Shown here: one piece after another, positions 4,366 through 64,000 of the stretch
How positions within the stretch are numbered: position 1 is the first letter of the stretch
Layout of the letters: each line of letters starts with the position of its first letter
Source: Candidatus Latescibacterota bacterium
Lineage (GTDB): Bacteria; Latescibacterota; UBA2968; UBA8231
Direction: 5' to 3'
Assembly: GCA_965203175.1 (NCBI GenBank)
Contig: OZ241867.1
Coordinates: forward strand, 2,240,001-2,304,000
Length of the DNA stretch: 64,000 nucleotides
Translations under genes and position numbers: made by a program
The notes under the pieces: model-generated
Databases searched by the model: none
The model's input: the letters and a program-made list of their open reading frames with translations, nothing else
What the model was told of the DNA's origin: nothing

Positions 4366-6078
4366 ATGGCTAAACGGGAATTGCAGGGACAGGCTCCTTC
4401 GCCCGATGAGCGCTTTGAGCAACGGGTCGCGCATCTGCTTCAGCCTGAAGACATGAAGACCGAGCACTACCAATACGGGATCGAAGCCGTGGACGGGAAT
4501 CAGGCTTGGGCGCTCTTTTGCGCCAGCGGCGCTGGTGATCTGGCGCAGGTCAGCGCGTTGCTCGACCGCGATCCCAAGTTGGTCAATGCCCAGTACTGGT
4601 ACCAGTTTCCCATCCACATGGCGGTGCGCGAGGGCCATGCTGAGGTGGTCCAGCTACTGTTGCAGGCTGGGGCCGATCCGGGCCAGTCGCGTTATACTTA
4701 TAATTCGTGGGACAAGTTGCTAGCCATCGCCGAGGAGCGCGGCTACGGAGAAGTGCAGGCGCTGCTGGTGGCAGCGATGCGCGGGCGATTTGGCTACGAT
4801 CCGGGTTTTGTCGCGCTAGCCGAGGCGATCAAAGGCCGCGACCGGGCGCTGGTCGAGGCGGTGTTGGCCGAGCATCCCGACTTTATTCGCGCCGCCGATG
4901 CGTTGGGCAATGGGCCGCTGCACTGGGCGGCGCTGACGCGGCAAAACGACTTGGTGGATTTCTTTGTCGCGCAGGGTGCCGACCTCGAAGCTCGCCGCGC
5001 CGATGGCCAGACACCGCTATTGGTCTCGCTCAACGGCGACTACTGGTTTCGGACGCGCGATCTGCCGGCGGAAGCGCCGCGAGATCCGTGGGTTGTTACC
5101 CGCCACTTGCTCGCTTGCAGCGCGGAGTACGCTCTCAGCATTGCCTGTGCGGCTGGCGATGAAGATCGCGTCAATGAAGTGCTGGTGGCCGATCCGGCTC
5201 AGGCCCGTACTCTCGATGCCGGACGGCGCAGTCCGCTGTCCTATGCCGCTCGCAACGGCCATACCCGGATCGTCGAAAAATTGCTGGATTTGGGTGCCGA
5301 TCCCAATCAGCCCGAAGAAAACGCGTCGCGCGGCAAAGCACTCTTCGAGGCTTGCGCGGGTAACCATTTGGAGACAGTGAAACTGTTGCGCGAACGCGGT
5401 GCCGATCCCAATGCCGGGGTGGACTCTTCGGGCTCTTGCCTGACTATCGTCGAGTTCAATCACAGCAAGAAAGGCCAACAAATGCAGGCTCTGTTACGCG
5501 AATACGGTGCTGTGACGCCGCCTTATGCCATGGACGACGCGGCGCTGGAACGGGCGATGCGCGAGGGAGATGCTGTCATTTCGCACTCACAATTCCTGCA
5601 CGAGTTGATGGGACGGGATAATCCCGCGCTCATTGGCGTCTTCTTGGAAATCACACCGGATGTGGGCGACCTGTTCCAATTGACCGATATCTGGGGCGGC
5701 AACTATCCTTCAGACCCCGATACAATCCGCACCTTGGCCGACCGCGGCCTCGACCTGCACCGCGCCAACTGGATCGGCCGCACCTTTCTGCACGGCTGTG
5801 CGGAAAAGGGCGATGTTGCGGCGGCTCGCGTCTTTTTGGAGTTGGGAGCCGATATAGAGGCGGTCGAATTGGAATACGGAGGCACGCCTTTGGCCGCTGC
5901 GGCGCGCAAGGGGCAGGCGGAGATGGTGCGTTTTTTATTAGAACAAGGTGCCGATCCAGCCGCGCCAGCCGAGTCGCCTTGGGCGCAGCCGCTTTATTGG
6001 GCGGAGAAGGAAGGGCAGGGGGAAGTGGCGGAGTTGCTTAAGGAAAGGCTCAGAGGGAAAGGCGCTAGCGGCGATTAG
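4366..6078 (+). CDS. Ankyrin repeat protein (cytoplasmic, divergent repeats)
   Basis: FPIHMAVREGHAEVVQLLLQAGADP, GNGPLHWAA, RSPLSYAARNGH, GTPLAAAARKGQAEMVRFLLEQGAD. Start 4366 follows AGAGGGA. Confidence 0.9.
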   Translation: MAKRELQGQAPSPDERFEQRVAHLLQPEDMKTEHYQYGIEAVDGNQAWALFCASGAGDLAQVSALLDRDPKLVNAQYWYQFPIHMAVREGHAEVVQLLLQAGADPGQSRYTYNSWDKLLAIAEERGYGEVQALLVAAMRGRFGYDPGFVALAEAIKGRDRALVEAVLAEHPDFIRAADALGNGPLHWAALTRQNDLVDFFVAQGADLEARRADGQTPLLVSLNGDYWFRTRDLPAEAPRDPWVVTRHLLACSAEYALSIACAAGDEDRVNEVLVADPAQARTLDAGRRSPLSYAARNGHTRIVEKLLDLGADPNQPEENASRGKALFEACAGNHLETVKLLRERGADPNAGVDSSGSCLTIVEFNHSKKGQQMQALLREYGAVTPPYAMDDAALERAMREGDAVISHSQFLHELMGRDNPALIGVFLEITPDVGDLFQLTDIWGGNYPSDPDTIRTLADRGLDLHRANWIGRTFLHGCAEKGDVAAARVFLELGADIEAVELEYGGTPLAAAARKGQAEMVRFLLEQGADPAAPAESPWAQPLYWAEKEGQGEVAELLKERLRGKGASGD

Positions 6079-6113
6079 GTACTGAGTAAACGCTACTTGA
6101 TAGAAGGAATAAA

Positions 6114-7496
6114 ATGGAAGAGCAAATTGGTGTAGTTATCGAGCAGGGGCCGGCGGATTGGCAGGTTGTGCAGCAGGACGAGCGCGGGAAGGGGAGGATT
6201 GAGTTGGGGGGGAGGTGGAAGTTCGAGACGCCCGGACAAGTGGAGGTGCGCTTGGTGTGGGAGGATACGGGGGTGGCTGTTGCGGCCGGTTTGGACTGGC
6301 AGGCTGTGCCGACAGAGGAAGATGGGACTTGGAAGGGTGCTTTGGAACACATACCGGCGGGAGGGCTCTATCGGCTGGAGACGCGGTTGCGGACGGCGGA
6401 GAATCCGGCTGGGGAGTGGTCGCCGAGGGGAGATATGCGGCACTTTTTGGGCATAGGCGATTTGTGGGTGATTGCCGGGCAGAGCAATTCGGCTGGATAC
6501 GGGCGCGGGCCGTACGAGGACCCAGCGGAACTGGGAGTGCATCTATTTAGGAATAGCGAGCAATGGGCGCTGGCGGCGCATCCGATGAACGAATCGACGG
6601 ATACCCAGCACGCAGTGAACCGAGAGGCCGCCAATCCAGGGCACTCGCCCTACCTGCAATTTGGGTGCACGCTCAAAAGGACGCTCTCGCACCCGGTGGG
6701 TTTGGTGCAGACGGCGTTGGGAGGCTCTCCGCTTACTCGGTGGAATCCCGGCGAGCCGGGGGCGGCGGATTTGTTTGACAATATGGTGCAGTGCGTGGAG
6801 AAGGTAGGGGGGAAGGTTCGGGGGATTGTGTGGTATCAGGGGGAAAGCGATACGGGGACCGACGCGGACGCGACCAGTTATGCGGAGCGGTTCCAGCAAG
6901 CAGTCGCCGCTTGGCGGGAGGCCCTTGCGGACGTGGAGTTGCCGGTGCTCACCGTGCAGCTAAACCGCGTGTACCAACCCGCAGACCCGGATGCCGATCG
7001 GCGCTGGAGCCAAGTGCGTGAGGCGCAGCGACAGGTGGCGCGGCAAACGCCGGGCATAGGCGTGGTGCCAGCGCTCGACTTGCCGCTTGCGGATCAGATC
7101 CACACCAGTCCCGCTGGCAATATGCTCTTGGGCGAGCGATTGGCGCAGGCGGCTTTGGGGTTGGTTTATGGACAAGCAGTAGCTTGGCAGGCACCGGATT
7201 TGGTAGCGGCTCGGCGGCGGGAGGACCGTGTCGAGCTAGAGTTTGCAGCCGTCGAGAGCCGGATGGACAGCATTGACCTAGAAGCCAACAGCTTCCGGGT
7301 CGAGGATGCGGCCGGCGAGGTTCCGGTCGCGGCAGTGAGCTATCCCAAGGACCATCGCGTCGAGTTGATTTTGGAGCGGCCCTTGCAAGGGGTGGCTAGG
7401 GTCCACGGCGGCTACGGCAAGGATCCGGCCACCGTGCCAGCGGACATGGAGCGCTTTTTGCCGATGTTGGGCTTCTGGGGCGTGGAGATCGTCTGA
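6114..7496 (+). CDS. Sialate O-acetylesterase-like SGNH hydrolase (SASA/DUF303)
   Basis: GDLWVIAGQSN, GIVWYQGESD, DQIH catalytic motifs. Confidence 0.88.
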   Translation: MEEQIGVVIEQGPADWQVVQQDERGKGRIELGGRWKFETPGQVEVRLVWEDTGVAVAAGLDWQAVPTEEDGTWKGALEHIPAGGLYRLETRLRTAENPAGEWSPRGDMRHFLGIGDLWVIAGQSNSAGYGRGPYEDPAELGVHLFRNSEQWALAAHPMNESTDTQHAVNREAANPGHSPYLQFGCTLKRTLSHPVGLVQTALGGSPLTRWNPGEPGAADLFDNMVQCVEKVGGKVRGIVWYQGESDTGTDADATSYAERFQQAVAAWREALADVELPVLTVQLNRVYQPADPDADRRWSQVREAQRQVARQTPGIGVVPALDLPLADQIHTSPAGNMLLGERLAQAALGLVYGQAVAWQAPDLVAARRREDRVELEFAAVESRMDSIDLEANSFRVEDAAGEVPVAAVSYPKDHRVELILERPLQGVARVHGGYGKDPATVPADMERFLPMLGFWGVEIV

Positions 7497-7563
7497 TTAT
7501 ACATCACGCGGTGAAGTGAGCTAAGGTGTTTGGCCGGATCTCCCAATCGCTGGAAGGATTCGT

Positions 7564-10500
7564 ATGAGTGACATATCCTTTGAGCACGTGTTGAGTAGCC
7601 AGTATACGGTCTTTGATGGGCTAGCTGGTATGCACGTGGAAGACATCTACCAAGATCGCCAGGGCTTCCTCTGGATCGCCACAGCCGACGGCGGCGTTAG
7701 CCGGTTCGACAGCGCTCGGTTCGATACGTTTGGCCTCAAGGACGGCCTGCCCAATCTGACAGTCATGGCCATTGCCGAAGACGCCGATGGGCGGCTGCTA
7801 TTCGGCACATTCGGTGGGGGGCTTGCCGCGTACGACGGGCGTGAGTTTCAGGTGTACACCACCGAGCACGGCCTGCCTTCCAACAAAATTTTGGGTCTGC
7901 AAGCCCAGCCAGACGGCTTGATTCTAGTGCTGACTGATGCGGGTGTGGCGTGGTTTGTCGAGGGACACTGCATAAGGTGCATAACCGAAGTTGGCGGCCA
8001 ACCGTTGAAGCGAGTGCGCGATATGGCCACCGACGCGGGTGGCACTACTTGGTTGGCGACGATGAACCGAGGCGTCCTCAGCTTGGATGGGCGGTATATG
8101 GGTATGAGCGAGGGAGCGGGCCAATGGCCTTGGAAATTCGCCCAAGAACCCTCCGGCTATTTGTGGATTTCCTTCCATTACACGAGTAGCGAAGTCTTGA
8201 TCGGCTGCTACGACCCACAGGACCAACAGCTCGCGTTCGTTGATGTGGGCAAAGGCGACGAGGGGGTGGTGCAGCACGGGACGCGGCACGTGCGGGCTGA
8301 CGAGAGGGGCTGGCTCTGGCTGACTCACAGGGGTGTTATGGTATACGACGGGCAGGAGTGGCATCCCTTTTCTGCTTCCTTGCCAGATATTGACTTTTCG
8401 GCTACGCGGCTGACATACGAGGACCGCGAGGGCAATATCTGGATTGGGCTTTGGGGAGGTGGGCTGGTTTTTTGCGATCCGGTCAGCATCCGGCGCTACA
8501 CAGAAGCCGATGGCCTGCCTGATCGAGAGATTCGCTGCTTAGGTGAAGATCCTGGAGGGCGGATATGGATTGGCACGATGGGAGGCATGGCCTGTATGGA
8601 AGAAGGCCAAATCCGCCCGGTCAAGACGGGGGAAATCGTCTCGGCGATAGTGGTAGATGGCCAGGGCCAAGTCTGGAGTGGTGGAGATGCAGGCAAGGTG
8701 TACAAGTGGGAAGGCCAAACGCCCCAAGCGATCCCTGTAACCGAAGAGACCCATCCCGAAGAAATCGCTGGGCTATGTGAAGATGGGCAAGGGCGTATCT
8801 GGGTCGGCACGTCTGAGAGCCGCTTTGGCTGGATAGAGGGAAATTGCTTTATCTCTCTTGAATGCGGCACTGCGCTACAAGACCAAGACGAGTCATTCTG
8901 GATTGGATCATTGCTGCGAGACCAAGACGGAGTATTTTGGCTTGGTTCAGTTGGAGAAGTACCCGCACTATACTGTTACGAGGATGGCCACTTGCGCCCG
9001 GCGGATATAGCCGAAGTAGAGTCCATCGCTTATGTCAACGTCTTGTGGGAGCATCAAAACACGCTGTGGGTGGGTACGGGCAAGGGGCTTTTTGCCCTTA
9101 ATCTCCAGTCTCGGCAGGTGTACCACTTTACCGCCGAGCAGTTTGGGCTGTCGGCCAATGGCATCTTGGCGCTGACCGCCGACTCGCAGGACAACATCTG
9201 GATGGGCACCAGCGGAGGCGGTGTCCTCCGCTACGACGGCCAGACCTTCCAGAGTATCCGTTTGGGACCATCCGCTCTCGAAAACATGGTCGAAGCCGTC
9301 CTGTGCGATCGTCGCGGTCGGCTGTGGTTTGGCACGCGGGCAGGACTAGTCGCCTATCAGCCGGGACACGCGCCGCCGCGCCTGGTCATCCGCGAGGTGA
9401 TGGCTGGCACCCGCTTGGCCGCGCCCGAAGCCGTATCCTGCCCAGAGAGCACCCCTGAGATACGCATTCATTTTCAAGGCATTAGCTTCCGCACGGGCGC
9501 AGGTCAGATGCGCTACAGCCACCGCTTGTTAGGCCACGGCCCGACGGAACAGTGGAGTGCGTTTACAGCCGCCGATGCGGTCGCGTACGATGCCCTGCCG
9601 GTAGGCGAGTATTGCTTTGAGGTGCGGACGATGGACCGCGATGGCCTGCTGTCCGAGGTCGCCAGTCTGGAGATGCAAATCCTCCCCGACGCCAAAACCG
9701 AACGCATCCACGCCCTTGAAAACGTGCTGCGAGCTACCGACCACGTCGTGCATAGCCAGAGTTGGTCCATGCGCCAGGTGCTGGAGCAGACCATGCGAGT
9801 CGCCGAGACGGCGATGACCGTGCTGGTGCTGGGCGAGACCGGTACCGGCAAGGGCTTACTGGCGCAGGTTATCCACGAAACAAGCACCCGCCGCATGCGG
9901 CCCTTTATCCATGTCAACTGTGGGGCCCTACCCGCCGGGTTGGTCGAAAGCGAGTTGTTCGGTCACGAGAAGGGGGCTTTTACTGGCGCAGATAGCCGCC
10001 AGCTTGGCCGCTTTGAACTGGCCGATGGCGGCACCCTCTTTCTCGACGAAATCGGCGATTTGCCGTTGGAGTCTCAGCGGGTGCTGCTGCACATCTTGGA
10101 GGAGAATACGCTGACTCGCGTCGGCGGTCAGCAGCCTGTACCCGTGGACGTGCGGGTCATCGCGGCGACCAACCGCGACCTGCGTCAGGCCATCCAGGAA
10201 GGCACGTTCCGCGAAGACCTGTTCTACCGCCTGAGCGTTTTTACGCTAGAGCTTCCGCCGCTGCGGCAGCGGCAAGAGGATATTCCGGCTTTGGCAGTGC
10301 ATTTTGCCGAGCGGTATGCCCAGCACCTACAGCAGCCGGTGCCGACGCTAGACGAGGGGGTGGTTGCGCACTTGCAGGCGTATGCTTGGCCGGGGAATGT
10401 GCGGGAGTTGGAGCACCTGATCAATAGGGCGGTCTTGCTGTGTGAGGACGGGGTGATACGCGTTGGTGATTTGTTGCTGCCGTCGGTCGGTCATCGGGTT

Positions 10501-10689
10501 GGCGATGCGGTGCCTCCAGCGCCAGCGGCTGGCGAGGGCTTGGACGAAAAGCAGCAGATTGTGGAGGCACTGCAAGCGACCCACTGGAGAATCTATGGAG
10601 TACATGGTGCAGCCGCGTTGTTGAGTATGCACCCGGAGAAGCTGCGTTACCGCATGCAGAAATACGGGTTACAACGCCCGAAGAAGTAG
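7564..10689 (+). CDS. Sigma54-dependent activator fused to a Reg_prop beta-propeller and Y_Y_Y domain
   Basis: DGL..I..I.ED..G.LW repeats; YDALPVGEYCFEVRTMDRDG; GETGTGKG; ESELFGHEKGAFTGA; GTLFLDEIGD; WPGNVREL; FhlA-like C-terminal HTH. Confidence 0.93.
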   Translation: MSDISFEHVLSSQYTVFDGLAGMHVEDIYQDRQGFLWIATADGGVSRFDSARFDTFGLKDGLPNLTVMAIAEDADGRLLFGTFGGGLAAYDGREFQVYTTEHGLPSNKILGLQAQPDGLILVLTDAGVAWFVEGHCIRCITEVGGQPLKRVRDMATDAGGTTWLATMNRGVLSLDGRYMGMSEGAGQWPWKFAQEPSGYLWISFHYTSSEVLIGCYDPQDQQLAFVDVGKGDEGVVQHGTRHVRADERGWLWLTHRGVMVYDGQEWHPFSASLPDIDFSATRLTYEDREGNIWIGLWGGGLVFCDPVSIRRYTEADGLPDREIRCLGEDPGGRIWIGTMGGMACMEEGQIRPVKTGEIVSAIVVDGQGQVWSGGDAGKVYKWEGQTPQAIPVTEETHPEEIAGLCEDGQGRIWVGTSESRFGWIEGNCFISLECGTALQDQDESFWIGSLLRDQDGVFWLGSVGEVPALYCYEDGHLRPADIAEVESIAYVNVLWEHQNTLWVGTGKGLFALNLQSRQVYHFTAEQFGLSANGILALTADSQDNIWMGTSGGGVLRYDGQTFQSIRLGPSALENMVEAVLCDRRGRLWFGTRAGLVAYQPGHAPPRLVIREVMAGTRLAAPEAVSCPESTPEIRIHFQGISFRTGAGQMRYSHRLLGHGPTEQWSAFTAADAVAYDALPVGEYCFEVRTMDRDGLLSEVASLEMQILPDAKTERIHALENVLRATDHVVHSQSWSMRQVLEQTMRVAETAMTVLVLGETGTGKGLLAQVIHETSTRRMRPFIHVNCGALPAGLVESELFGHEKGAFTGADSRQLGRFELADGGTLFLDEIGDLPLESQRVLLHILEENTLTRVGGQQPVPVDVRVIAATNRDLRQAIQEGTFREDLFYRLSVFTLELPPLRQRQEDIPALAVHFAERYAQHLQQPVPTLDEGVVAHLQAYAWPGNVRELEHLINRAVLLCEDGVIRVGDLLLPSVGHRVGDAVPPAPAAGEGLDEKQQIVEALQATHWRIYGVHGAAALLSMHPEKLRYRMQKYGLQRPKK

Positions 10690-10734
10690 CGCAGGACACA
10701 AGAGATTATACAGGAGGCCAACGGCCAACAAAAG

Positions 10735-10784
10735 TCGTGGAAGTCCACGAAAAAATCGTGGAAGTCCACGGAAAAATCGTGGAA
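10735..10784. repeat. 21-bp-period direct repeats (2.5 copies), each a palindrome CGTGGA-ag-TCCACG; probable enhancer (UAS)
   Basis: TCGTGGAA starts at 10735, 10756 and 10777, ~120-170 bp upstream of a sigma54 promoter. Confidence 0.75.
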
Positions 10785-10855
10785 ACCCTTGCGCCGATGG
10801 CGAGGAAGTGCCCTATAGAAAGACCGCTCCTATAATTCTAAATATCATGTTTTTC

Positions 10856-10881
10856 AATCCTTTAGGATATCCTAAAGGATT
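10856..10881. promoter_or_regulatory. Perfect 26-bp palindrome between the UAS and the sigma54 promoter
   Basis: AATCCTTTAGGAT|ATCCTAAAGGATT. Confidence 0.6.
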
Positions 10882-10902
10882 TTTTGTCGGCGGCCGAATG
10901 TT

Positions 10903-10917
10903 TGGCACGGAATGTGC
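10903..10917 (+). promoter_or_regulatory. Sigma54 -24/-12 promoter
   Basis: TGGCACG-GAAT-GTGC versus consensus TGGCACG-N4-TTGC. Confidence 0.75.
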
Positions 10918-10971
10918 TTATATATCCTCAGTAGTGCACCCTATTCACAACCTTATGCAAGGAGCCACATT

Positions 10972-11880
10972 ATGAGGTATCGGTTCATGCTAATCATCTG
11001 CTTGGCAACGCTGGGACTGGCCGACGCTGGCTGGGGGGAAGCCGACGGTAAAATCGCATTTATCTCCGGTCGCGACTCTGGTCGCGAAGAGCACCACCAT
11101 GACGTGTGGATTATGAATGCGGATGGGAGTGACCCTGTAAACCTGACCAAAGGACGGCATTGCACTAGCCCGGCTTGGTCCCCGGATGGCACGAAGATCG
11201 CCTATATCGGTGACATTTTTGACGACGAGCAGTACGGTGGGGAGATTTGGTTGATGGATGCCGACGGCGGCAACCCACAGCAACTAACAGACGATTCAGT
11301 CGATGGACTATTGCTTTCGTGGTCTGAAGATGGGCATAGCATTTACTATACCGTGCAGACTACGGACGGTCCGAGAAACTCTCCTAGTACATTTGTTTTG
11401 GCGCTGGACGGAAGTGGCTCCTCGCCCGTGGACAACTGGAGAGAGGTGCCCCACAATCGTCGCGCCAGTCGTTCCCCGGATGGAACCAAAGAAGCAATCG
11501 TCGTGCTGCAAGAACAAGGGGACGAAGAGGGCCATGTCCGCCTCTATGTCCGAGATGCGAGTGAAGACGAATTTATCCCCCGACCTACTGATGAGCACCC
11601 GGGTGTTCTCCTGTCTGGCATGCCCTCCCAGAGAGATGAGACCGAGCGCGACTGGACAGTGTCAACTCGTCCTACTTGGTCGCCCGATAGTATGAGGATA
11701 GCCTTCTCTTCTCGCGACGGCATTTGGGCCGTTGATATAGACGGGGGCAACTTGGTCGAACTGACCAACGGCTTAGGTGGAAACTCTCCTGCTTGGCAAC
11801 CGACTATCCCCGCTGCTACAAGCGTCGAGGCCCAGTCGTGGGGACGGATCAAAGCGCTACTTTCAACAGCTATCCGTTAA
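10972..11880 (+). CDS. Secreted TolB-like (PD40) beta-propeller protein with C-terminal TSVEAQSWGRIK motif
   Basis: Signal peptide MRYRFMLIICLATLGLADAGWG; repeats SPAWSPDGTKIAY and PTWSPDSMRIAF. SD AAGGAG precedes ATG 10972. Confidence 0.88.
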   Translation: MRYRFMLIICLATLGLADAGWGEADGKIAFISGRDSGREEHHHDVWIMNADGSDPVNLTKGRHCTSPAWSPDGTKIAYIGDIFDDEQYGGEIWLMDADGGNPQQLTDDSVDGLLLSWSEDGHSIYYTVQTTDGPRNSPSTFVLALDGSGSSPVDNWREVPHNRRASRSPDGTKEAIVVLQEQGDEEGHVRLYVRDASEDEFIPRPTDEHPGVLLSGMPSQRDETERDWTVSTRPTWSPDSMRIAFSSRDGIWAVDIDGGNLVELTNGLGGNSPAWQPTIPAATSVEAQSWGRIKALLSTAIR

Positions 11881-57124: not shown

Positions 57125-60100
57125 ATGGAAACAAGACTAACGAGAAAAGACCTAGCCTTTATCGGCGGCTGCGTACTCCTTGCCGCCGTTAGTTTGGCCG
57201 TTGGAGTTCACTACTTCTACCGGGCTTTTCCCGAAGCCTCAATCGACTTCCGCGTCACCCGCGACGAGGCCAAGGAGCAGGCGGTCGATTTTATCGCCGC
57301 CCGCGGCTTTGATCTGGCCGATTACCGCCACAGCGCCATTTTCCGCTACGACGAACAGACCAAGACCTTTCTCGAGCGCGAGTTGGGTCTGGAGGGGGCC
57401 ACGCAGGTCATTGGCAATCCCGTGCAGTTGTGGCGCTGGAGCAACCGCTGGGTAAAGGAGCTGGAAAAGGAAGAGTTTCAGGCCACGGTTACGACTTCTG
57501 GCGATCTTGTCAGTTTTAGTCACCTCATCGAGGAAGAGGCACCCGGCGCGAGCCTCGAAGAAGCCGAAGCTCGCCGCTTGGCCGAGACCTTTCTCACCAG
57601 CGAGCTCGGCCGCGACCTCGCCGCGCTCGAATTCGTAGAAGTCCAGACCCAGGAACGACCTAACCGCGTCGACCACACCTTTAGCTGGAAACTGCGCGAC
57701 TTCGCCGTTGGCGAGGCCTACTACCGCTTCTACGTGCGGCTGCAAGGCGACCAGATCGGCGGCTTTGGCGAGTATCTCAAAATCCCCGAGGCGTGGGAGC
57801 GCGACTTCGCCGAGCTGCGGTCGCATAACGAGACCACGGGCTTAGTGGCCGGGACCTTACTCATCCTGACCATCCTGGCGATGCTGGTTTCGTTCTTTAT
57901 CGGCGTTCGCGCCCGAGATATCCGCTGGAAGACTGCCGCGATCTTCGGGGCCATCGCCACGGTTCTGACGCTACTGGCCGAACTCAACAACCTGCCGCTG
58001 ACCGCGTTTGACTACGACACGACCGATACATACGGGTCTTTTCTGACGAGACAGTTGCTCAACAGTCTGTTTGCCGCCGCCGCCCAAGGCATCCTCATCT
58101 TCTTTCTCACCGCGGCGGCTGAGCCTTTGTACCGACGCTACTACGCGAACCAAATTCAGATTGGGGGCCAGTTTACGCCAGCGGGCCTGCGCACCAAGCG
58201 CTTTCTCCTCGGCACCATTCTCGGCTTGGCCATGACCCCGGCCTTCTTGGCCTACCAGGTGATCTTTTACATCACGGCCGAACAGTTGGTCGGCGCTTGG
58301 GGTCCGGCGCACATTCCCTACAGCGAGATGGTCAACACCTATATCCCGTGGATCATGGTGCTGTTGATCGGCTTTATGCCCGCGGTCTTCGAGGAGTTTA
58401 TCTCCCGGGCGTTTTCGATTCCCTTCCTGCACAAATACCTCAAGTTCCGCTGGGTTGCGGTCGTCATCGCGGGCCTTATATGGGGATTCGCCCATGCCAA
58501 CTATCCGCAGCAGCCCTTTTACATTCGCGGCATTGAGGTAGGCATCGCCGGTATTGTCGTTGGCTATATTTTTCTCCGGTTCGGGATTCTCGCCCCTCTC
58601 GTATGGCACTATACGATTGACGCCCTGTACACGTCCCTAATCCTCTTCCGCTCGTCCAACAGCTACTTCGTCGTTTCAGCGGCCTTGTCGACGGGTCTGA
58701 TGCTCCTGCCCTTGGCAGTGGCTCTCGTCCTCTACCTGCGGCAACGTCGCTTCGCCGACCCAACGCCCTTGCTCAACAAAAGCGCTGCGCCCCCCGCCTC
58801 GGAAGCCGCCGCGGACGAGCCTACAGCGCAACAGCCCGCCGCCCCGGCCCCCACGTTTGTCTATACCCCGCTGTCTAAACGACGCCTAGGTTGGGCCGTC
58901 GCGGTGGTCGTGGTCTCGCTGGGCTTTTTCGCCCTCGATTACGAGAAGCCGCTCGACTTTGTCGATGTCCGCCTGACCCAGGGCGAGGCCGAGGCCAAGG
59001 CCGTTGAGTATCTAAAGGCGACCGGTGCGGATCCCTCGGCATACGAAGTGGTCACCTATTATCAAAACCAGCCGAACACGATGGCGATCCGGTACATCTT
59101 GGAGCGCGACTCGGTGGCCGTGGTCAATCGCCTATACCAAAAAGATCTGTTGGCCAGCTTGTGGGTGACGCGCTTTTTCCGCTATGGAGAAAAGGAGGAA
59201 TACAGAGTTGCCGTTCATCCGGAAGACGGTTCCCTCTATAGCATAAACCACCTGCTGGCCGAAGAGGCCGAGGGTGCGGACCTCGAAGAGGCACAAGCCC
59301 AGGCAATAGCTGTCGAGCACCTACGTGCCTTCGGCTTTGACGTCGAGGAATTGGAGCTCAAGGAATCCTCGTCGGAAAAGCTGCCCAACCGCCGCGATCA
59401 CCGCTTCGTCTTTGAGGCTGTCGAGGGCGACCCGCGCAACGTCGATGAGCTGCGCTATCGAGTGCGGGTCAACGTCGCCGGCGACGAGCCGGTTTCCATC
59501 TATCGCTTCCTCAAAGTGCCCGAGGATTGGCAACGTGAGCGCGAAGAGGGCACCACGCTCAAGACCGCGCTTTCCGGCCTGCTCATCGTCTTGATTGCCG
59601 CGGTGGTGATCCACGGCCTGTGGCTGCTCGTGCGTCGCGTGCGGAACGAGGGCATAGTTTGGGCACCGCTGATCAAAATTGCCGCGATTGTCGCGGCCTT
59701 CTTATTACTCGAATTTCTCAATGGCCTGTCGGTTGTCGAACGCGCCTACGATACCCGCCTCACGCTGTCGATCTTTACCATTACCCAAATACTCAGCATT
59801 ATCTTGGGCAGCTTGGGGGTCGGCTTGATGATTGTCGCGGCTCTCGGCTTAGCCACCAGCCTCTATCCAGACTGGTCGGCGCGCCTGCGGGTCGCGCGGC
59901 GCGTGCCCGAATTCCGCGACGCTGTCGTCGGGGTTGCGCTGATCCTCGTCGCCAGAGAGGCGTGGCAGCACTTGCGCGGCTACGTAGAGAGCCGATTTAT
60001 CGCCTCCGACCCGAGTCTCGGCTTTGGGCTACCCTCTGGATTGGACCAGTATCTGCCCTTTTGGAATCCCCTGTCCGACGGCGTAATGAACGCCATCTTC

Positions 60101-60478
60101 CTCCCAATTATCGCCGGCTTAGTGCTCTACTATAGCCGCGTGGTAATAAAAAAGCGGCTCTACGCAGTCGTGGCGGGTTTGGGGGTGGGATTGATTATGT
60201 CCGGCGGCAATGCCGTTCACTTCGACGAATTCCTCTTTGAGTTGTTGACGTTTGTCACTAGTATCGGCTTCGTCGTCGCTGCAATCGTCTTGCTCTTGCG
60301 GAACAACCTCCTCGCGTACGTGCTGTTGGGGTTTGTCTCGGTGCTCTTGGAGGTCAAGAGCCTCGGCGCGCTGTCTGCGCCGGCCTATCAGTTGCAAGCC
60401 GGGATTCTGTTGCTGCTGACTCTTCTGGTGGTCTTCTGCCTGTGGTGGCGTTTGGGCGCTGAGCGCGAGGCGTCCTAG
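57125..60478 (+). CDS. Large CPBP (CAAX/Abi) intramembrane metalloprotease with duplicated architecture
   Basis: PAVFEEFISR, WGFAHANY, LVWHYTID; the extracytoplasmic segment E(R/L)PNRxDHxF occurs in both halves. Confidence 0.88.
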   Translation: METRLTRKDLAFIGGCVLLAAVSLAVGVHYFYRAFPEASIDFRVTRDEAKEQAVDFIAARGFDLADYRHSAIFRYDEQTKTFLERELGLEGATQVIGNPVQLWRWSNRWVKELEKEEFQATVTTSGDLVSFSHLIEEEAPGASLEEAEARRLAETFLTSELGRDLAALEFVEVQTQERPNRVDHTFSWKLRDFAVGEAYYRFYVRLQGDQIGGFGEYLKIPEAWERDFAELRSHNETTGLVAGTLLILTILAMLVSFFIGVRARDIRWKTAAIFGAIATVLTLLAELNNLPLTAFDYDTTDTYGSFLTRQLLNSLFAAAAQGILIFFLTAAAEPLYRRYYANQIQIGGQFTPAGLRTKRFLLGTILGLAMTPAFLAYQVIFYITAEQLVGAWGPAHIPYSEMVNTYIPWIMVLLIGFMPAVFEEFISRAFSIPFLHKYLKFRWVAVVIAGLIWGFAHANYPQQPFYIRGIEVGIAGIVVGYIFLRFGILAPLVWHYTIDALYTSLILFRSSNSYFVVSAALSTGLMLLPLAVALVLYLRQRRFADPTPLLNKSAAPPASEAAADEPTAQQPAAPAPTFVYTPLSKRRLGWAVAVVVVSLGFFALDYEKPLDFVDVRLTQGEAEAKAVEYLKATGADPSAYEVVTYYQNQPNTMAIRYILERDSVAVVNRLYQKDLLASLWVTRFFRYGEKEEYRVAVHPEDGSLYSINHLLAEEAEGADLEEAQAQAIAVEHLRAFGFDVEELELKESSSEKLPNRRDHRFVFEAVEGDPRNVDELRYRVRVNVAGDEPVSIYRFLKVPEDWQREREEGTTLKTALSGLLIVLIAAVVIHGLWLLVRRVRNEGIVWAPLIKIAAIVAAFLLLEFLNGLSVVERAYDTRLTLSIFTITQILSIILGSLGVGLMIVAALGLATSLYPDWSARLRVARRVPEFRDAVVGVALILVAREAWQHLRGYVESRFIASDPSLGFGLPSGLDQYLPFWNPLSDGVMNAIFLPIIAGLVLYYSRVVIKKRLYAVVAGLGVGLIMSGGNAVHFDEFLFELLTFVTSIGFVVAAIVLLLRNNLLAYVLLGFVSVLLEVKSLGALSAPAYQLQAGILLLLTLLVVFCLWWRLGAEREAS

Positions 60479-61750: not shown

Positions 61751-62449
61751 ATGCGCGTACTTGTAACCGGCGCAGCCGGCCGTGTCGGCTCTACTGTAGC
61801 CCGCGGCCTCAAGGATCGCCACGAGGTGCGCGGTCACGACCGCGTGCCCATGCCCGACCTCACTGATACGGTCGTCTCCGACCTCACCGACTTTGACTCC
61901 ATGCTAGAGGCTACGCGGGATGTAGACGCCGTTGCCCACATTGGGGGTCTGCCCGGCGGCAACGAGTGGGAGACGATGCTGCAGAGCAACTTCATCGGCA
62001 CGTACAACGTCTTTGAGGCCGCGCGCCAAAACGGCGTCAAGCGCGTCGCCTATGCCAGCCGCGCCGGGGTCTTAACGCTCTATCCGCGCAGCATTCACCG
62101 CACGGTCGATATGACTACCACCCCAGTGGGTATCTACACAGTCAGCAAGGTTTTCGCCGAGGCGCTGGCCCACTCTTTTGCCCATCAGCACGACATGGAA
62201 TTTGTCTGCGTGCGCATCGGCAACTTCAACATTGAGCGCGACCAGCCCGAACATCCGCACCATCTCAGCCACGGCGATTGCGTGCGGGTTTTTGAGCAGG
62301 CGCTGATTCATCCGGGCGTAAAGTTTGAAATCGTCTTTGGGGTGTCGGGCAGCAACTGGCCACTCTACGATGTCGAACACGGCAAGAGGGCGATTGGGTA
62401 TGAGCCGCAGGATTATTCGGAGGTGCCGGAAGAAGAGTGGGGGAGGTAG
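61751..62449 (+). CDS. NAD-dependent epimerase/dehydratase (uronate dehydrogenase-like)
   Basis: VTGAAGRVG, NFIGTYNVFEAA, YTVSK, VRIG. Confidence 0.9.
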   Translation: MRVLVTGAAGRVGSTVARGLKDRHEVRGHDRVPMPDLTDTVVSDLTDFDSMLEATRDVDAVAHIGGLPGGNEWETMLQSNFIGTYNVFEAARQNGVKRVAYASRAGVLTLYPRSIHRTVDMTTTPVGIYTVSKVFAEALAHSFAHQHDMEFVCVRIGNFNIERDQPEHPHHLSHGDCVRVFEQALIHPGVKFEIVFGVSGSNWPLYDVEHGKRAIGYEPQDYSEVPEEEWGR

Positions 62450-62528
62450 GGCTGCTTAGACACCAATGAGACACTGACAGCGGTAAAATGCGTTGGACGC
62501 TTGGGCTTGAGACGATGGGCACTTTTGC

Positions 62529-62556
62529 TTGACAGTCTCCGAGTCCTTGGTACATT
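62529..62556 (+). promoter_or_regulatory. Sigma70 promoter of the capsid-antitoxin/VapC operon
   Basis: TTGACA (62529-34)-N16-TACATT (62551-56), with an extended -10 TG. Confidence 0.6.
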
Positions 62557-62580
62557 TCACAACATCATTAAAAAACGACA

Positions 62581-62616
62581 TAAGGCGGGTACCTCTGCGA
62601 TGGAGATACCCGCTTA
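62581..62616. promoter_or_regulatory. Imperfect inverted repeat in the 5' leader
   Basis: TAAGGCGGGTACCTC...GGAGATACCCGCTTA. Confidence 0.5.
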
Positions 62617-62657
62617 AAAATATGCAATCAGACGTTGCAGTAGTCAGAAGAAACGAT

Positions 62658-63620
62658 ATGACAGATTCGGAGCTTCAGAAAAGTCGAGAGCTTCTCGAAA
62701 GTTTGACGGTCGAGAGCTTACAGACCTCAGAAGGCCAGGAAGAATTTAATCAGGCGGCGGGAAAGTACATTCGGGGCAAGATCAAAAAGATGTCTTTGTT
62801 TTACAAGGTGATGCCCCCCCAGATCGTAACCGAAGACAAATTGGAGACCATCCTTGGCAACGCGACGGGCGAGCAGCCTGATCTAAGATGCTTCAGGCCC
62901 AGTGTACAGAAGCCAGGCATGGCGATGTTGATGGACATGGGTGGCGAGCCAGTCCCCGAGTATGTAGACGGTAAACAGCGGCTTCTCATCCCGATGCGTA
63001 CTGTCAAGACCAAGTGGTTTGAAAAGACCGCCGAGGAGCTTTCAGGCTCTGGCATCCTGAAGGTTGTCGAGGAGATGGCCTCTTGGGAGGTCAAGGAGCG
63101 TGACAGGAAATTTCTGAAGTACTGCGAGCTAGTGGTCGCGCAGTCGGGACAGGTGCTTAGAGAGAATAGTCCCCTGCAGCACGATCATTTCCGCAAAATT
63201 CAGCATCCGGCTCAGGGTCATGAGATCATGCCCAAGATGGTTCTTCTATCCGAAATAGCCTTCATGGACTTGGACCTACCAGACTCTGCTACAGAGATTA
63301 ACCCCATGACATGTATTCGCTCAATCGACAACGATATACTTGCTTCGACAGAGATATGGTCTTTTCCAGCACCAGACTCTCTGGGATACAATCTGTATTG
63401 CGGGAATTACAAGGTCCAGAGTCAGAGGAAAGCGGACGGGTGGAGGTTCATAGGATGGGAGATGGTTGGTGCAGGCATTGGCAATATCAATGGCATTACT
63501 AAGCTCACTATAACGTCGTCTCGCCGGTTGGGTTTTATGGACGGAGAGATCAAAGTCCCCGACGACTTCGACAGCATGGGCGATTCTGAGATAGAGAAGA
63601 TGTTCGAGGAGGATGAGTGA
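62658..63620 (+). CDS. Phage major-capsid-like (HK97-fold) domain fused to a Phd/VapB-type antitoxin C-terminal tail (start 62622 or 62658)
   Basis: Capsid-like blocks L.TSEG.E...GKYIR, MPPQIVT, WFEKTAEEL, RDRKFL, IRSIDNDIL, WEMVGAGIGNINGITKL; tail RRLGFMDGEIKVPDDFDSMGDSEIEKMF (63522-63620). Confidence 0.7.
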   Translation: MTDSELQKSRELLESLTVESLQTSEGQEEFNQAAGKYIRGKIKKMSLFYKVMPPQIVTEDKLETILGNATGEQPDLRCFRPSVQKPGMAMLMDMGGEPVPEYVDGKQRLLIPMRTVKTKWFEKTAEELSGSGILKVVEEMASWEVKERDRKFLKYCELVVAQSGQVLRENSPLQHDHFRKIQHPAQGHEIMPKMVLLSEIAFMDLDLPDSATEINPMTCIRSIDNDILASTEIWSFPAPDSLGYNLYCGNYKVQSQRKADGWRFIGWEMVGAGIGNINGITKLTITSSRRLGFMDGEIKVPDDFDSMGDSEIEKMFEEDE

Positions 63621-64000
63621 CTTTATTACTGGATACTCATCTGTTGCTGTGGGCGGCAGGCGACTCAGGACAGTTGTCATCGAAAGCTCAGAATCTTCTC
63701 GGCGACCCCGCTACGGAGCTGATGTTCAGCACCGCAAGCATTTGGGAGATCGTCATCAAGAGCGCACTCGACAGAGACGACTTTCGCGTTGACCCGCAGC
63801 GGTTTCGGAATGGCCTGATACAAAACGGCTACAGCGAACTAGAGATTCGATCCGAACACGCGCTCGCTGTCGGGTCTCTGCCGCTAATTCACAAGGACCC
63901 CTTCGACCGCATACTCATAGCGCAAGCGCAGGTCGAAAATGTCACGCTGCTTACCACGGACGACAAGATGGCCCGCTATTCCGGTCCCATCCAAGTGGTC
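63617..64000 (+). CDS. vapC: PIN-domain VapC toxin (stop just beyond the window)
   Basis: GTG overlaps the upstream TGA (GTGA). MTLLLDTHLLLWAAG...STASIWEIVIK...HKDPFDRILIAQAQVE..TLLTTDD; acidic catalytic residues intact. Confidence 0.93.
   Translation, partial: MTLLLDTHLLLWAAGDSGQLSSKAQNLLGDPATELMFSTASIWEIVIKSALDRDDFRVDPQRFRNGLIQNGYSELEIRSEHALAVGSLPLIHKDPFDRILIAQAQVENVTLLTTDDKMARYSGPIQVV

Follow-up and report, generated by a model that had tools for sequence, protein, structure and literature searches.

A predicted chimeric antitoxin formed by an HK97-fold capsid protein and a VapB-type tail, coupled to a VapC toxin in a genus of Latescibacterota

The stretch of DNA analyzed here, referred to below as the window, has 64,000 nucleotides (G000:C1:2240001-2304000) and is part of a single-contig genome of 6.58 Mb from a Candidatus Latescibacterota bacterium. 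At its 3' end lies a two-gene operon in which the first gene, judged by its sequence, encodes a chimeric antitoxin, i.e., a full-length HK97-fold capsid protein followed by a VapB-type C-terminal tail, and the second gene encodes the toxin VapC. In the structural models, the capsid-like core stands in the place of the DNA-binding domain that is usual in antitoxins, and the comparison of related loci indicates that purifying selection maintains the capsid-VapB fusion in some of the genomes of a single genus. The best explanation for this arrangement, held here with slightly less than even confidence, is that the capsid-like domain represents the sensor or guard (the bait) at the input of a toxin-antitoxin (TA) pair, which is located in a defense hot spot.

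Gene 1 was first called as an open reading frame (ORF) at 62529-63620 of the forward strand, followed by a second ORF which begins at 63617 and runs past the end of the window. The two-gene operon with a GTGA overlap that was described in a first-pass annotation of this DNA is confirmed at 63617-63620, where the GTG start of gene 2 (63617-63619) overlaps the TGA stop of gene 1 (63618-63620), by which the two genes are taken to be translationally coupled. The TTG at 62529, which had been taken as the start of gene 1, belongs instead to the -35 hexamer of the promoter-like site described below. The true start is ATG 62658, at the beginning of the motif MT[DN]SELQ..., which is used by most of the homologues and by all 10 of the aligned loci of the genus, and the product has 320 aa, divided into the core (residues 1-287) and the tail (residues 288-320).

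The core (62658-63518, + strand) presents a complete HK97 fold, with the N-terminal helices, the E-loop, the spine helix, the A-domain, and the P-domain hairpin. The AlphaFold2 (AF2) model of the gene 1 product, based on 28 homologues, has a pLDDT of 79.8 and a pTM of 0.76, with residues 289-301 and 317-320 being disordered. The likeness of the N-terminal part of approximately 290 aa to major capsid proteins had been proposed in the earlier annotation, and it is now borne out by both fold and profile. For example, the Foldseek comparison of the model with the PDB returned 278 chains at E<=1e-3, and the matches listed are all HK97-fold capsids or encapsulins, the best being the SaPI1 capsid (E 1.2e-8), while the comparison with BFVD returned 240 viral models (best E 9.2e-13), most of which are named major capsid protein. 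VIA-align found 550 chains at Z>=8, with the best match being the EncA of M. xanthus (Z 15.7, rmsd 4.0 over 228 residues) and the HK97 prohead I at Z 14.4. As the scores of the encapsulins and of the phage coats amount to a tie, it is the sequence evidence that decides, and it decides for the phage side.

This evidence comes from profiles. Direct family searches with the gene 1 protein returned no Pfam family at E<=1, no PADLOC match, and PHROGs matches at E 0.2 or worse, and a profile found no match at E<=10 among the PDB sequences. The profile search for relatives, in turn, recovered 444 representative proteins at E<=1e-3, mostly with around 300 aa, and most of these relatives end where the core ends (profile position ~297). 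Ten of the relatives were sampled, and five of them match phrog_2522, "major head protein", with the other five matching nothing; none of the 10 matches Pfam. One relative, with 23% identity, sits in an IMG/VR contig beside a large terminase (phrog_675, E 2.2e-68), and this contig also has a head-maturation-protease-like gene. The alignment by hhalign of the clade of the window with a set of phage major head proteins, which is phrog_2522-positive and includes the head-module gene of the viral contig, gave a probability of 100 and an E-value of 1.8e-53 over 274 columns. A tblastn search of 50,697 phage records provided a single match, the major capsid protein of the Salmonella phage Arash, with 22.8% identity to the window protein, 83% coverage, and E 7e-5. 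Given this, residues 1-287 are considered homologous to the major head proteins of phages, a conclusion drawn from sequence comparison.

The closest tail-less relatives (P0032-P0035 and P0037) have 43-51% identity with the window protein, and one of them (P0033) found no tblastn match among the phages. Patterns specific to the clade gave 178 matches in the viral contigs of IMG/VR, and 42 and 468 matches (with two alignments) in metagenome contigs, none of which was confirmed in either source. The encapsulin family 1 of Pfam, Linocin_M18, has no match anywhere in the genome, and the control genomes did match it.

The gene 1 product ends in SSRRLGFMDGEIKVPDDFDSMGDSEIEKMFEEDE, i.e., residues 288-320, which, together with the TGA stop, occupy 63519-63620 (+ strand) and are shared with short antitoxins, whereas the tail-less relatives P0032-P0035 stop four residues past ...GITKL, such that the fusion junction coincides with the natural C-terminus of these relatives. 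The search of the 168 genomes of the phylum with the whole protein gave, in addition to full-length matches, many that cover residues 286-320 alone, at 63-89% identity, and the tblastn search with the tail alone gave identities of 68-91%. This tail is the same module as the C-terminus of the short ribbon-helix-helix (RHH; FitA/VapB-like) and DUF433 antitoxins of the genus. The earlier proposal of a toxin-binding tail thus stands in so far as a VapB-type module of short antitoxins is concerned, but the Phd/YefM-type label that came with it is rejected, since the short antitoxins which carry the tail are of the RHH and DUF433 types. In NCBIfam, TA_VapB matches the tail of gene 1 below the threshold (E 0.088), and the RHH form of the antitoxin also has sub-threshold matches, to TA_VapB (E 3.2e-4) and to the FitA-like RHH family of Pfam (E 1.3e-3).

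Gene 2 is the intact PIN/VapC gene that had been proposed. It encodes a PIN toxin of 128 aa (63617-64000, + strand), with the stop located 3 nt past the end of the window (L001 2718-3104), and it matches the PIN family of Pfam (PF01850) at E 6.7e-13, with the four acidic residues (D6, E44, D97, and D115) being invariant in all 14 aligned relatives. The prediction of a complex between VapC and residues 279-320 of the gene 1 product scored 0.50 (0.50, 0.52, and 0.47 in the separate runs), with the best of three controls at 0.01, a partner pLDDT of at least 61, and a contact agreement of at least 89%. In the calibration of this score, 58 of 80 solved complexes attained the mark, as did two of 110 mismatched pairs, and values up to 0.60 count as a weak pass. 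Binding of VapC by the tail has a high prior, given that canonical antitoxins end in this tail. The tail is read as a VapB-type toxin-binding module which is predicted, at the level of this weak pass, to hold VapC.

The tail and vapC also behave as a mobile unit. Some contigs of an independent metagenome run from coral carry the tail but part from the window sequence precisely at 63519 and 63529, the boundary of the tail module. Between G000, the genome of the window, and G123, the synonymous divergence (dS) is 0 in vapC, 0.17 in the tail, and 0.35 in the core, and this contrast indicates that the tail and vapC recombine together as a cassette.

The capsid-like gene is found in 10 of the 31 genomes of one genus, being single-copy in G000, and in none of the 137 other genomes of the phylum. 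The core with the full tail is present in seven of the 31, with vapC directly downstream in all seven; in G000, no prophage surrounds it. An intact vapC of this clade is present in 10 of the 31 genomes, in seven of them behind the capsid-like gene, in two behind an unknown protein of 300 aa, and in one behind DruE. In public data, around 30 protein clusters carry the capsid-tail fusion, and the source labels of the relatives are metagenome-assembled genomes of Latescibacterota or Gemmatimonadota.

An origin of the fusion by chimeric assembly, which had been raised together with the possibilities of a singleton or of a sequence under neutral evolution, was rejected, given that the fusion recurs in other genomes and that an independent metagenome contig bridges the junction. 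Near-identical DNA is present in sponge and coral metagenome runs, and in an independent DNA run, a contig of 934 nt covers 62643-63576, across the core-tail junction, with two differences, and a second contig spans the tail into vapC. All 10 loci keep an unbroken reading frame, and the pairwise ratios of nonsynonymous to synonymous divergence (dN/dS) are 0.15-0.53 in the core, 0.06-0.33 in the tail, and 0.13-0.39 in vapC. In windows of 25 codons along the core, this ratio (omega) ranges from 0.11, in the spine helix, to a maximum of 0.67, with the spine helix and the P-domain at 0.11-0.15, and dN and indels highest in the E-loop and the A-domain. In three orthologues (G123a, G135, and G127), a part of the A-domain amounting to approximately 20-30 residues (profile positions 188-223) is missing, with the frame, the tail, and vapC retained, which suggests a relaxed constraint on shell building.

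A tree of 33 rows, rooted at the midpoint and with warnings of long branches in the outgroups, places all 24 of the tail-bearing rows together in a single clade (100/99), which is nested among the tail-less relatives. Within this clade there is a subclade (100/100) found in three genomes (G133, G137, and G123), in which a remnant of the tail (LGFMAGxIKIPDDFDRMGGP) comes after the core, with a domain of around 100 aa behind it. This C-terminal domain was placed with the Pol-beta nucleotidyltransferases by Atlas (0.95, as a lead only), and Pfam recognizes it neither in the whole protein nor in a part of 97 aa, so the name MNT-like is based on this lead and on the neighboring gene. The neighbor overlaps the stop of the capsid-MNT gene and is HepT-like (PF20797, E 6.9e-33); it is complete in G133, carries a frameshift in G137, and has an internal deletion in G123. 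As the capsid-MNT forms lie inside the tail-bearing clade, the combination of capsid and VapB tail would have come first and the MNT/HepT cassette later. The sequences thus indicate that this cassette replaced the distal tail and vapC, and that the core was kept as the body of two types of antitoxin.

The tail, in turn, is found on proteins of very different kinds. In the 168 genomes of the phylum, together with one metagenome protein (P0036), the same tail ends seven kinds of protein, the capsid-like protein included, and an intact vapC, with 76-98% identity, lies behind six tail loci outside the capsid group. The tail is found, for example, on DUF433 proteins (DUF433 match at E 3.4e-19), on an Nmad2 protein (Pfam E 1.2e-72) which is followed by vapC (L021 883-1985), and on a protein of around 300 aa, also followed by vapC, in four genomes and three families (L013, L015, L017, and L018). 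For the latter, AF2 gave a pLDDT of 38.9 and no confident fold, and all the Atlas leads were below 0.9. In P0036 (289 aa), what precedes the tail is the nuclease-end domain found in restriction enzymes of type III (PADLOC REase_III, 1.4e-30). In G141, a Druantia DruE1 of 1884 aa (PADLOC E = 0, 2038 bits) has a C-terminal VapB-type tail and overlaps an intact vapC, with DruD1 (3.2e-132) upstream, in a type I Druantia cluster on the minus strand (L055, G141:C1:4036500-4049500, 4429-11561). By sequence, therefore, the tail and vapC represent a portable module, which is also carried by DruE, a restriction-nuclease-like domain, Nmad2, and other proteins.

Among the RHH-type loci that were read, vapC is deleted or broken in seven of 10, and a further three have no match to vapC. 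Four of the seven broken loci retain the first codons of vapC alone, one has an internal deletion, one has nothing, and one has two pieces. Across seven short-antitoxin loci of the RHH or DUF433 type (L016, L019, L022, L025, L027, L031, and L032), vapC is reduced to its four initial codons in four, has an internal deletion in two, and is frameshifted in one. No intact vapC of the clade was found behind any RHH form in the 31 genomes, and the short RHH or DUF433 antitoxins of the genus that bear the tail are mostly without a toxin.

The operon occupies a variable slot for TA and defense genes, with an epimerase gene on one side and a PhyH-like gene on the other. Upstream are genes for a membrane protein of 1117 aa, a metallophosphoesterase, and the epimerase. 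Past the end of the window, after the stop of vapC, there is an orphan AbiEi gene (PADLOC 6.5e-90; L001 3196-4005, - strand), convergent with vapC in both G000 and G123, and then the PhyH-like gene. The AbiEi of G000 has no toxin partner, and the capsid operon occupies the position of that partner; in G134, the slot holds a complete AbiEi+AbiEii pair (AbiEii 3e-106; L069 5807-7428) and a duplicated 3' fragment of the epimerase gene. The same slot contains both capsid fusions in G123, the capsid-MNT and HepT genes in G133 and G137, a repeat protein of 1633 aa in G130, and, in G141, the Druantia cluster that ends in DruE-tail-vapC, with a HepT remnant and a duplicated epimerase gene. This arrangement of the epimerase/AbiE slot suggests the replacement of cassettes at an integration hot spot. 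The GC content falls from approximately 0.60-0.66 to 0.48-0.55 over the operon.

The absence of phage head genes nearby, which had been noted within the window, extends beyond it, given that 7 kb upstream and 1.5 kb downstream of the operon consist of cellular genes, and that the scan of the whole genome gave no match to Phage_portal, TerL_ATPase, Phage_capsid, or phrog_675, all families for which the control genomes did give matches. A prophage head module was rejected on these grounds. A capsid-forming satellite was likewise rejected, with a single head gene being present.

Under the bait reading, the tail would keep VapC inactive on the capsid-like protein, which would serve as the input module of the pair. 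When the cell is infected by a phage with a related head protein, the head-assembly machinery of this phage would engage the capsid-like domain, either through its co-assembly with the coat subunits or through its capture by the scaffold, the portal, or the protease; alternatively, the trigger may be the destabilization of the capsid-like domain. The tail would then release VapC, the RNase activity of which would arrest the cell, resulting in abortive infection, and a dominant-negative poisoning of head assembly may add to this effect. The sister fusions would follow the same principle, with the toxin docked on a protein (DruE, a restriction-nuclease-like domain, or Nmad2) that the phage must touch or disable. 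This reading is based on the retention of a complete viral fold through the swap of the toxin, on the other proteins that bear this cassette, namely DruE and a restriction-nuclease-like domain, on the location of the locus in a defense/TA hot spot, and on the fact that phage coat proteins are frequent triggers of TA defenses. Across the sequences, toxin docking on a sensor or on a guarded protein looks like a general principle, of which the capsid bait would be one case. A wider claim, which is doubtful although not far-fetched, is that bacteria have domesticated a coat protein as an integrated bait wired to VapC, and that the VapB tail is a plug-in dock which arms defense proteins.

Compared with the known systems, the pair is closest in its layout to the type II VapBC modules (RHH, FitAB-like), with which it shares a PIN toxin with four acidic residues, an antitoxin gene directly upstream of and overlapping the start of the toxin gene (in all seven loci), and a C-terminal tail that is the module of the short RHH-type antitoxins of the genus. 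The difference is that the N-terminal domain of around 45 aa, which binds DNA and dimerizes, has been replaced by an HK97 fold of 287 aa, and operator binding and classical conditional cooperativity are therefore not expected; the Pfam and NCBIfam scans found no match to a DNA-binding family. The core shares its fold and sequence homology with the major capsid proteins of tailed phages, but it has no head module around it and is flanked by cellular or TA genes. In the sister fusion of the three genomes, an MNT-like domain at the C-terminus and an overlapping HepT-like gene recall HepT-MntA, except that here the MNT-like domain is appended to a capsid-like core, behind what is left of the VapB tail, and its second catalytic Asp appears to be replaced.

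Several defenses respond to coat proteins. CmdTAC is reportedly a TA defense triggered by the major capsid protein of a phage, and Lit and PifA are said to be further defenses triggered by coat proteins. For CapRel(SJ46), the published account describes a TA defense that is triggered by the phage major capsid protein (10.1101/2023.12.08.570793). The pair described here would resemble CapRel and CmdTAC in being a TA system with an input linked to the phage capsid and an output of translation arrest. In those systems, however, the coat is bound by an antitoxin domain or a chaperone, i.e., by a sensor unrelated to capsids, whereas here the candidate sensor is itself a homologue of the coat, i.e., a homotypic bait; in addition, unlike CapRel, the toxin and the antitoxin are encoded by separate, overlapping genes, and the toxin is a PIN RNase.

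A latent RNase docked on a defense protein is also the logic of PrrC, an anticodon nuclease which is said to be held latent by the restriction enzyme EcoprrI and released upon interference by a phage. The DruE and restriction-nuclease fusions would share this logic, but they belong to unrelated families and the docking would be achieved by a covalently appended VapB tail. Fv1 and enJS56A1 are reportedly domesticated retroviral capsid genes of mammals with a demonstrated antiviral role, and they have in common with gene 1 that a host gene of viral capsid origin would be used against related viruses. They are, on the other hand, eukaryotic, with another fold and no toxin effector, and the antiviral role of gene 1 is inferred. 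The encapsulins (families 1-4) are similar in that they are stand-alone cellular genes of around 280 aa with the HK97 fold and include the top structural scores, but gene 1 has no family-1 sequence match and its relatives are phage head proteins. A classical cargo operon is also absent, and it is the shell-like protein that bears the docking peptide, with a toxin as its partner, although VapC itself might be the cargo, attached through a peptide of the shell protein.

To our knowledge, the cellular uses of HK97-fold proteins are those in virions, gene transfer agents, satellites, and encapsulins. If the proposed reading is correct, an HK97-fold protein as the body of an antitoxin would add a further kind of capsid domestication, and would represent a bacterial counterpart both of the "integrated decoy" sensors of plant immunity and of the capsid-derived restriction factors of mammals. 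The movement of a VapB tail of around 33 residues, together with vapC, as a cassette onto the C-termini of very different proteins would be a rule of design, and this cassette would provide a handle on the triggering of TA pairs by phages and on the guarding of defense systems. Full-text literature searches returned no HK97- or capsid-fold antitoxin, no link between encapsulins and VapC, and no DruE-VapC fusion, although the supplementary architecture tables of some studies (NetFlax PMC10440598 and a YprA helicase preprint) may list some.

A number of points weigh against the bait reading. The dN/dS of the core, at approximately 0.4, is relaxed and three orthologues have the A-domain deleted, which fits a protein that does not build shells but also slow decay. 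Confident AF2 models were obtained in three of five cases (pLDDT 79.8, 76.1, 76.1, 38.4, and 36.8), the window protein itself has no Pfam or PHROG capsid-family match, so that the link with phage heads is made through profiles, and the score of the VapC-tail complex is a weak pass, which solved VapBC structures may have inflated. Neither the search of the 168 genomes of the phylum nor that of IMG/VR, made with patterns of the clade itself, found a prophage or phage with a related head protein. The C-terminal extensions of HK97-fold coats usually face outward, and it is not obvious how VapC would be stripped off upon assembly. The decay of the toxins beside the related antitoxins (vapC, and HepT in two of three loci) is typical of the turnover of selfish TA systems, and phage sensing, toxicity, and neutralization are here argued from context and analogy.

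It is unlikely, though to be taken seriously, that the operon is an ordinary selfish or stress-related VapBC, in which the capsid domain is a stable, oligomerizing carrier without any sensing of phages and the toxin is activated by general proteolysis. The tail and vapC are canonical and recombine freely as a unit (in the G000/G123 comparison of dS given above), toxin genes beside the related antitoxins often decay, and the pentamers and hexamers that HK97-fold proteins are known to form would give avidity. What such a carrier would not explain is why the capsid-like domain was kept through the swap from VapC to HepT, why other tail fusions involve bona fide defense proteins such as DruE1 (E = 0), why the locus lies in a defense/TA hot spot, or why a viral fold of 287 aa, costly in comparison with an RHH domain of 45 aa, would be used. 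An improbable alternative is that gene 1 is a dominant-negative capsid which co-assembles with the phage coat and spoils the heads, with VapBC stabilizing the locus or acting as a second layer. The HK97 fold is complete, with the spine helix and the P-domain strongly conserved, the variation and indels are mostly in the E-loop and the A-domain, which are established elements of contact between capsid subunits, and Fv1 and enJS56A1 reportedly provide mammalian parallels. This would, however, leave unexplained both the conservation of the tail and the toxin with the core in all seven loci and the re-pairing of the core with HepT, and the 168 genomes of the phylum yielded no related phage.

It is quite improbable that the core forms an encapsulin-like shell, i.e., a self-assembled nanocompartment that sequesters VapC through its own C-terminal peptide until it is disturbed. 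The best VIA-align matches are encapsulins, at Z 15.7-14.5 against 14.4 for the HK97 prohead, which is a tie to within approximately 1, and gene 1 is a cellular gene for an HK97-fold protein that stands by itself, with no companion head genes. The genome nevertheless has no Linocin_M18 match, the protein has no Pfam match at E<=1, its sequence relatives are the phage major head proteins, and there is no cargo gene with a targeting peptide among the neighbors; in the known encapsulins, moreover, the peptide is reportedly on the cargo and the C-terminus is on the exterior of the shell, and some of the orthologues of gene 1 have deletions in the A-domain. It is hardly credible, finally, that the junction is accidental, with a decaying phage remnant having lost its stop and run into a truncated vapB to give a chimera without function. 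The GC content lower than that of the flanks, the recombinogenic nature of the tail module, and a tail-less relative in G138 that is broken by an insertion sequence would agree with such an event. By contrast, none of the 10 loci has a broken frame, the core shows a dN/dS well below 1 over its entire length, the promoter and the leader are conserved, around 30 public protein clusters have the fusion, which has a single, well-supported origin with later elaboration, and the junction coincides exactly with the point where the tail-less relatives naturally end.

The operon has a putative promoter of its own, as proposed in the earlier annotation, with a sigma-70-like site at 62529-62556 (+ strand; TTGACA-16-TACATT, with a TG before the -10) that has 10 of the 12 consensus matches and both hexamers invariant in the 10 aligned loci. 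The background of the promoter scan was three sites in 2 kb, against 1.3 +/- 1.1 in shuffled sequences. In the 5' leader of around 100 nt, RNAalifold on the 10 loci finds a 13-bp hairpin (62583-62615, + strand; -20.6 kcal/mol), with one compensatory pair and one broken cell. The substitutions in this hairpin are mainly from G-C to G-U, i.e., compatible with wobble pairing on the + strand, and this pattern is consistent with an RNA structure of that strand. Classical autoregulation is probably not present in this pair, given that the gene 1 protein has no DNA-binding domain, and the hairpin could be a candidate element for the (post-transcriptional) control of such an antitoxin. The Rfam search over 62400-64000 found no family at the threshold, with sub-threshold matches at the level of chance alone. 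The hairpin was also observed upstream of the capsid-MNT paralogues. Metatranscriptome contigs from sponges match parts of the end of the core, the tail, and vapC at approximately 91-97%, which points to relatives, with a carry-over of DNA being possible.

Two further observations concern the surroundings and the relatives of the operon. In G138 (L056, G138:C1:555000-574999, ~10059-11618), a distant tail-less capsid-like gene is split by the transposase of an insertion sequence, with uvrB, a restriction-enzyme-like gene, dnaK, and genes for methyltransferases around it. It represents the second solitary capsid-like gene of the genus and is now a pseudogene. The 1117-aa protein encoded upstream of the slot (window 57125-60478, + strand) is a multi-pass membrane protein with two repeated halves, and its synteny with the slot is preserved in at least three genomes.

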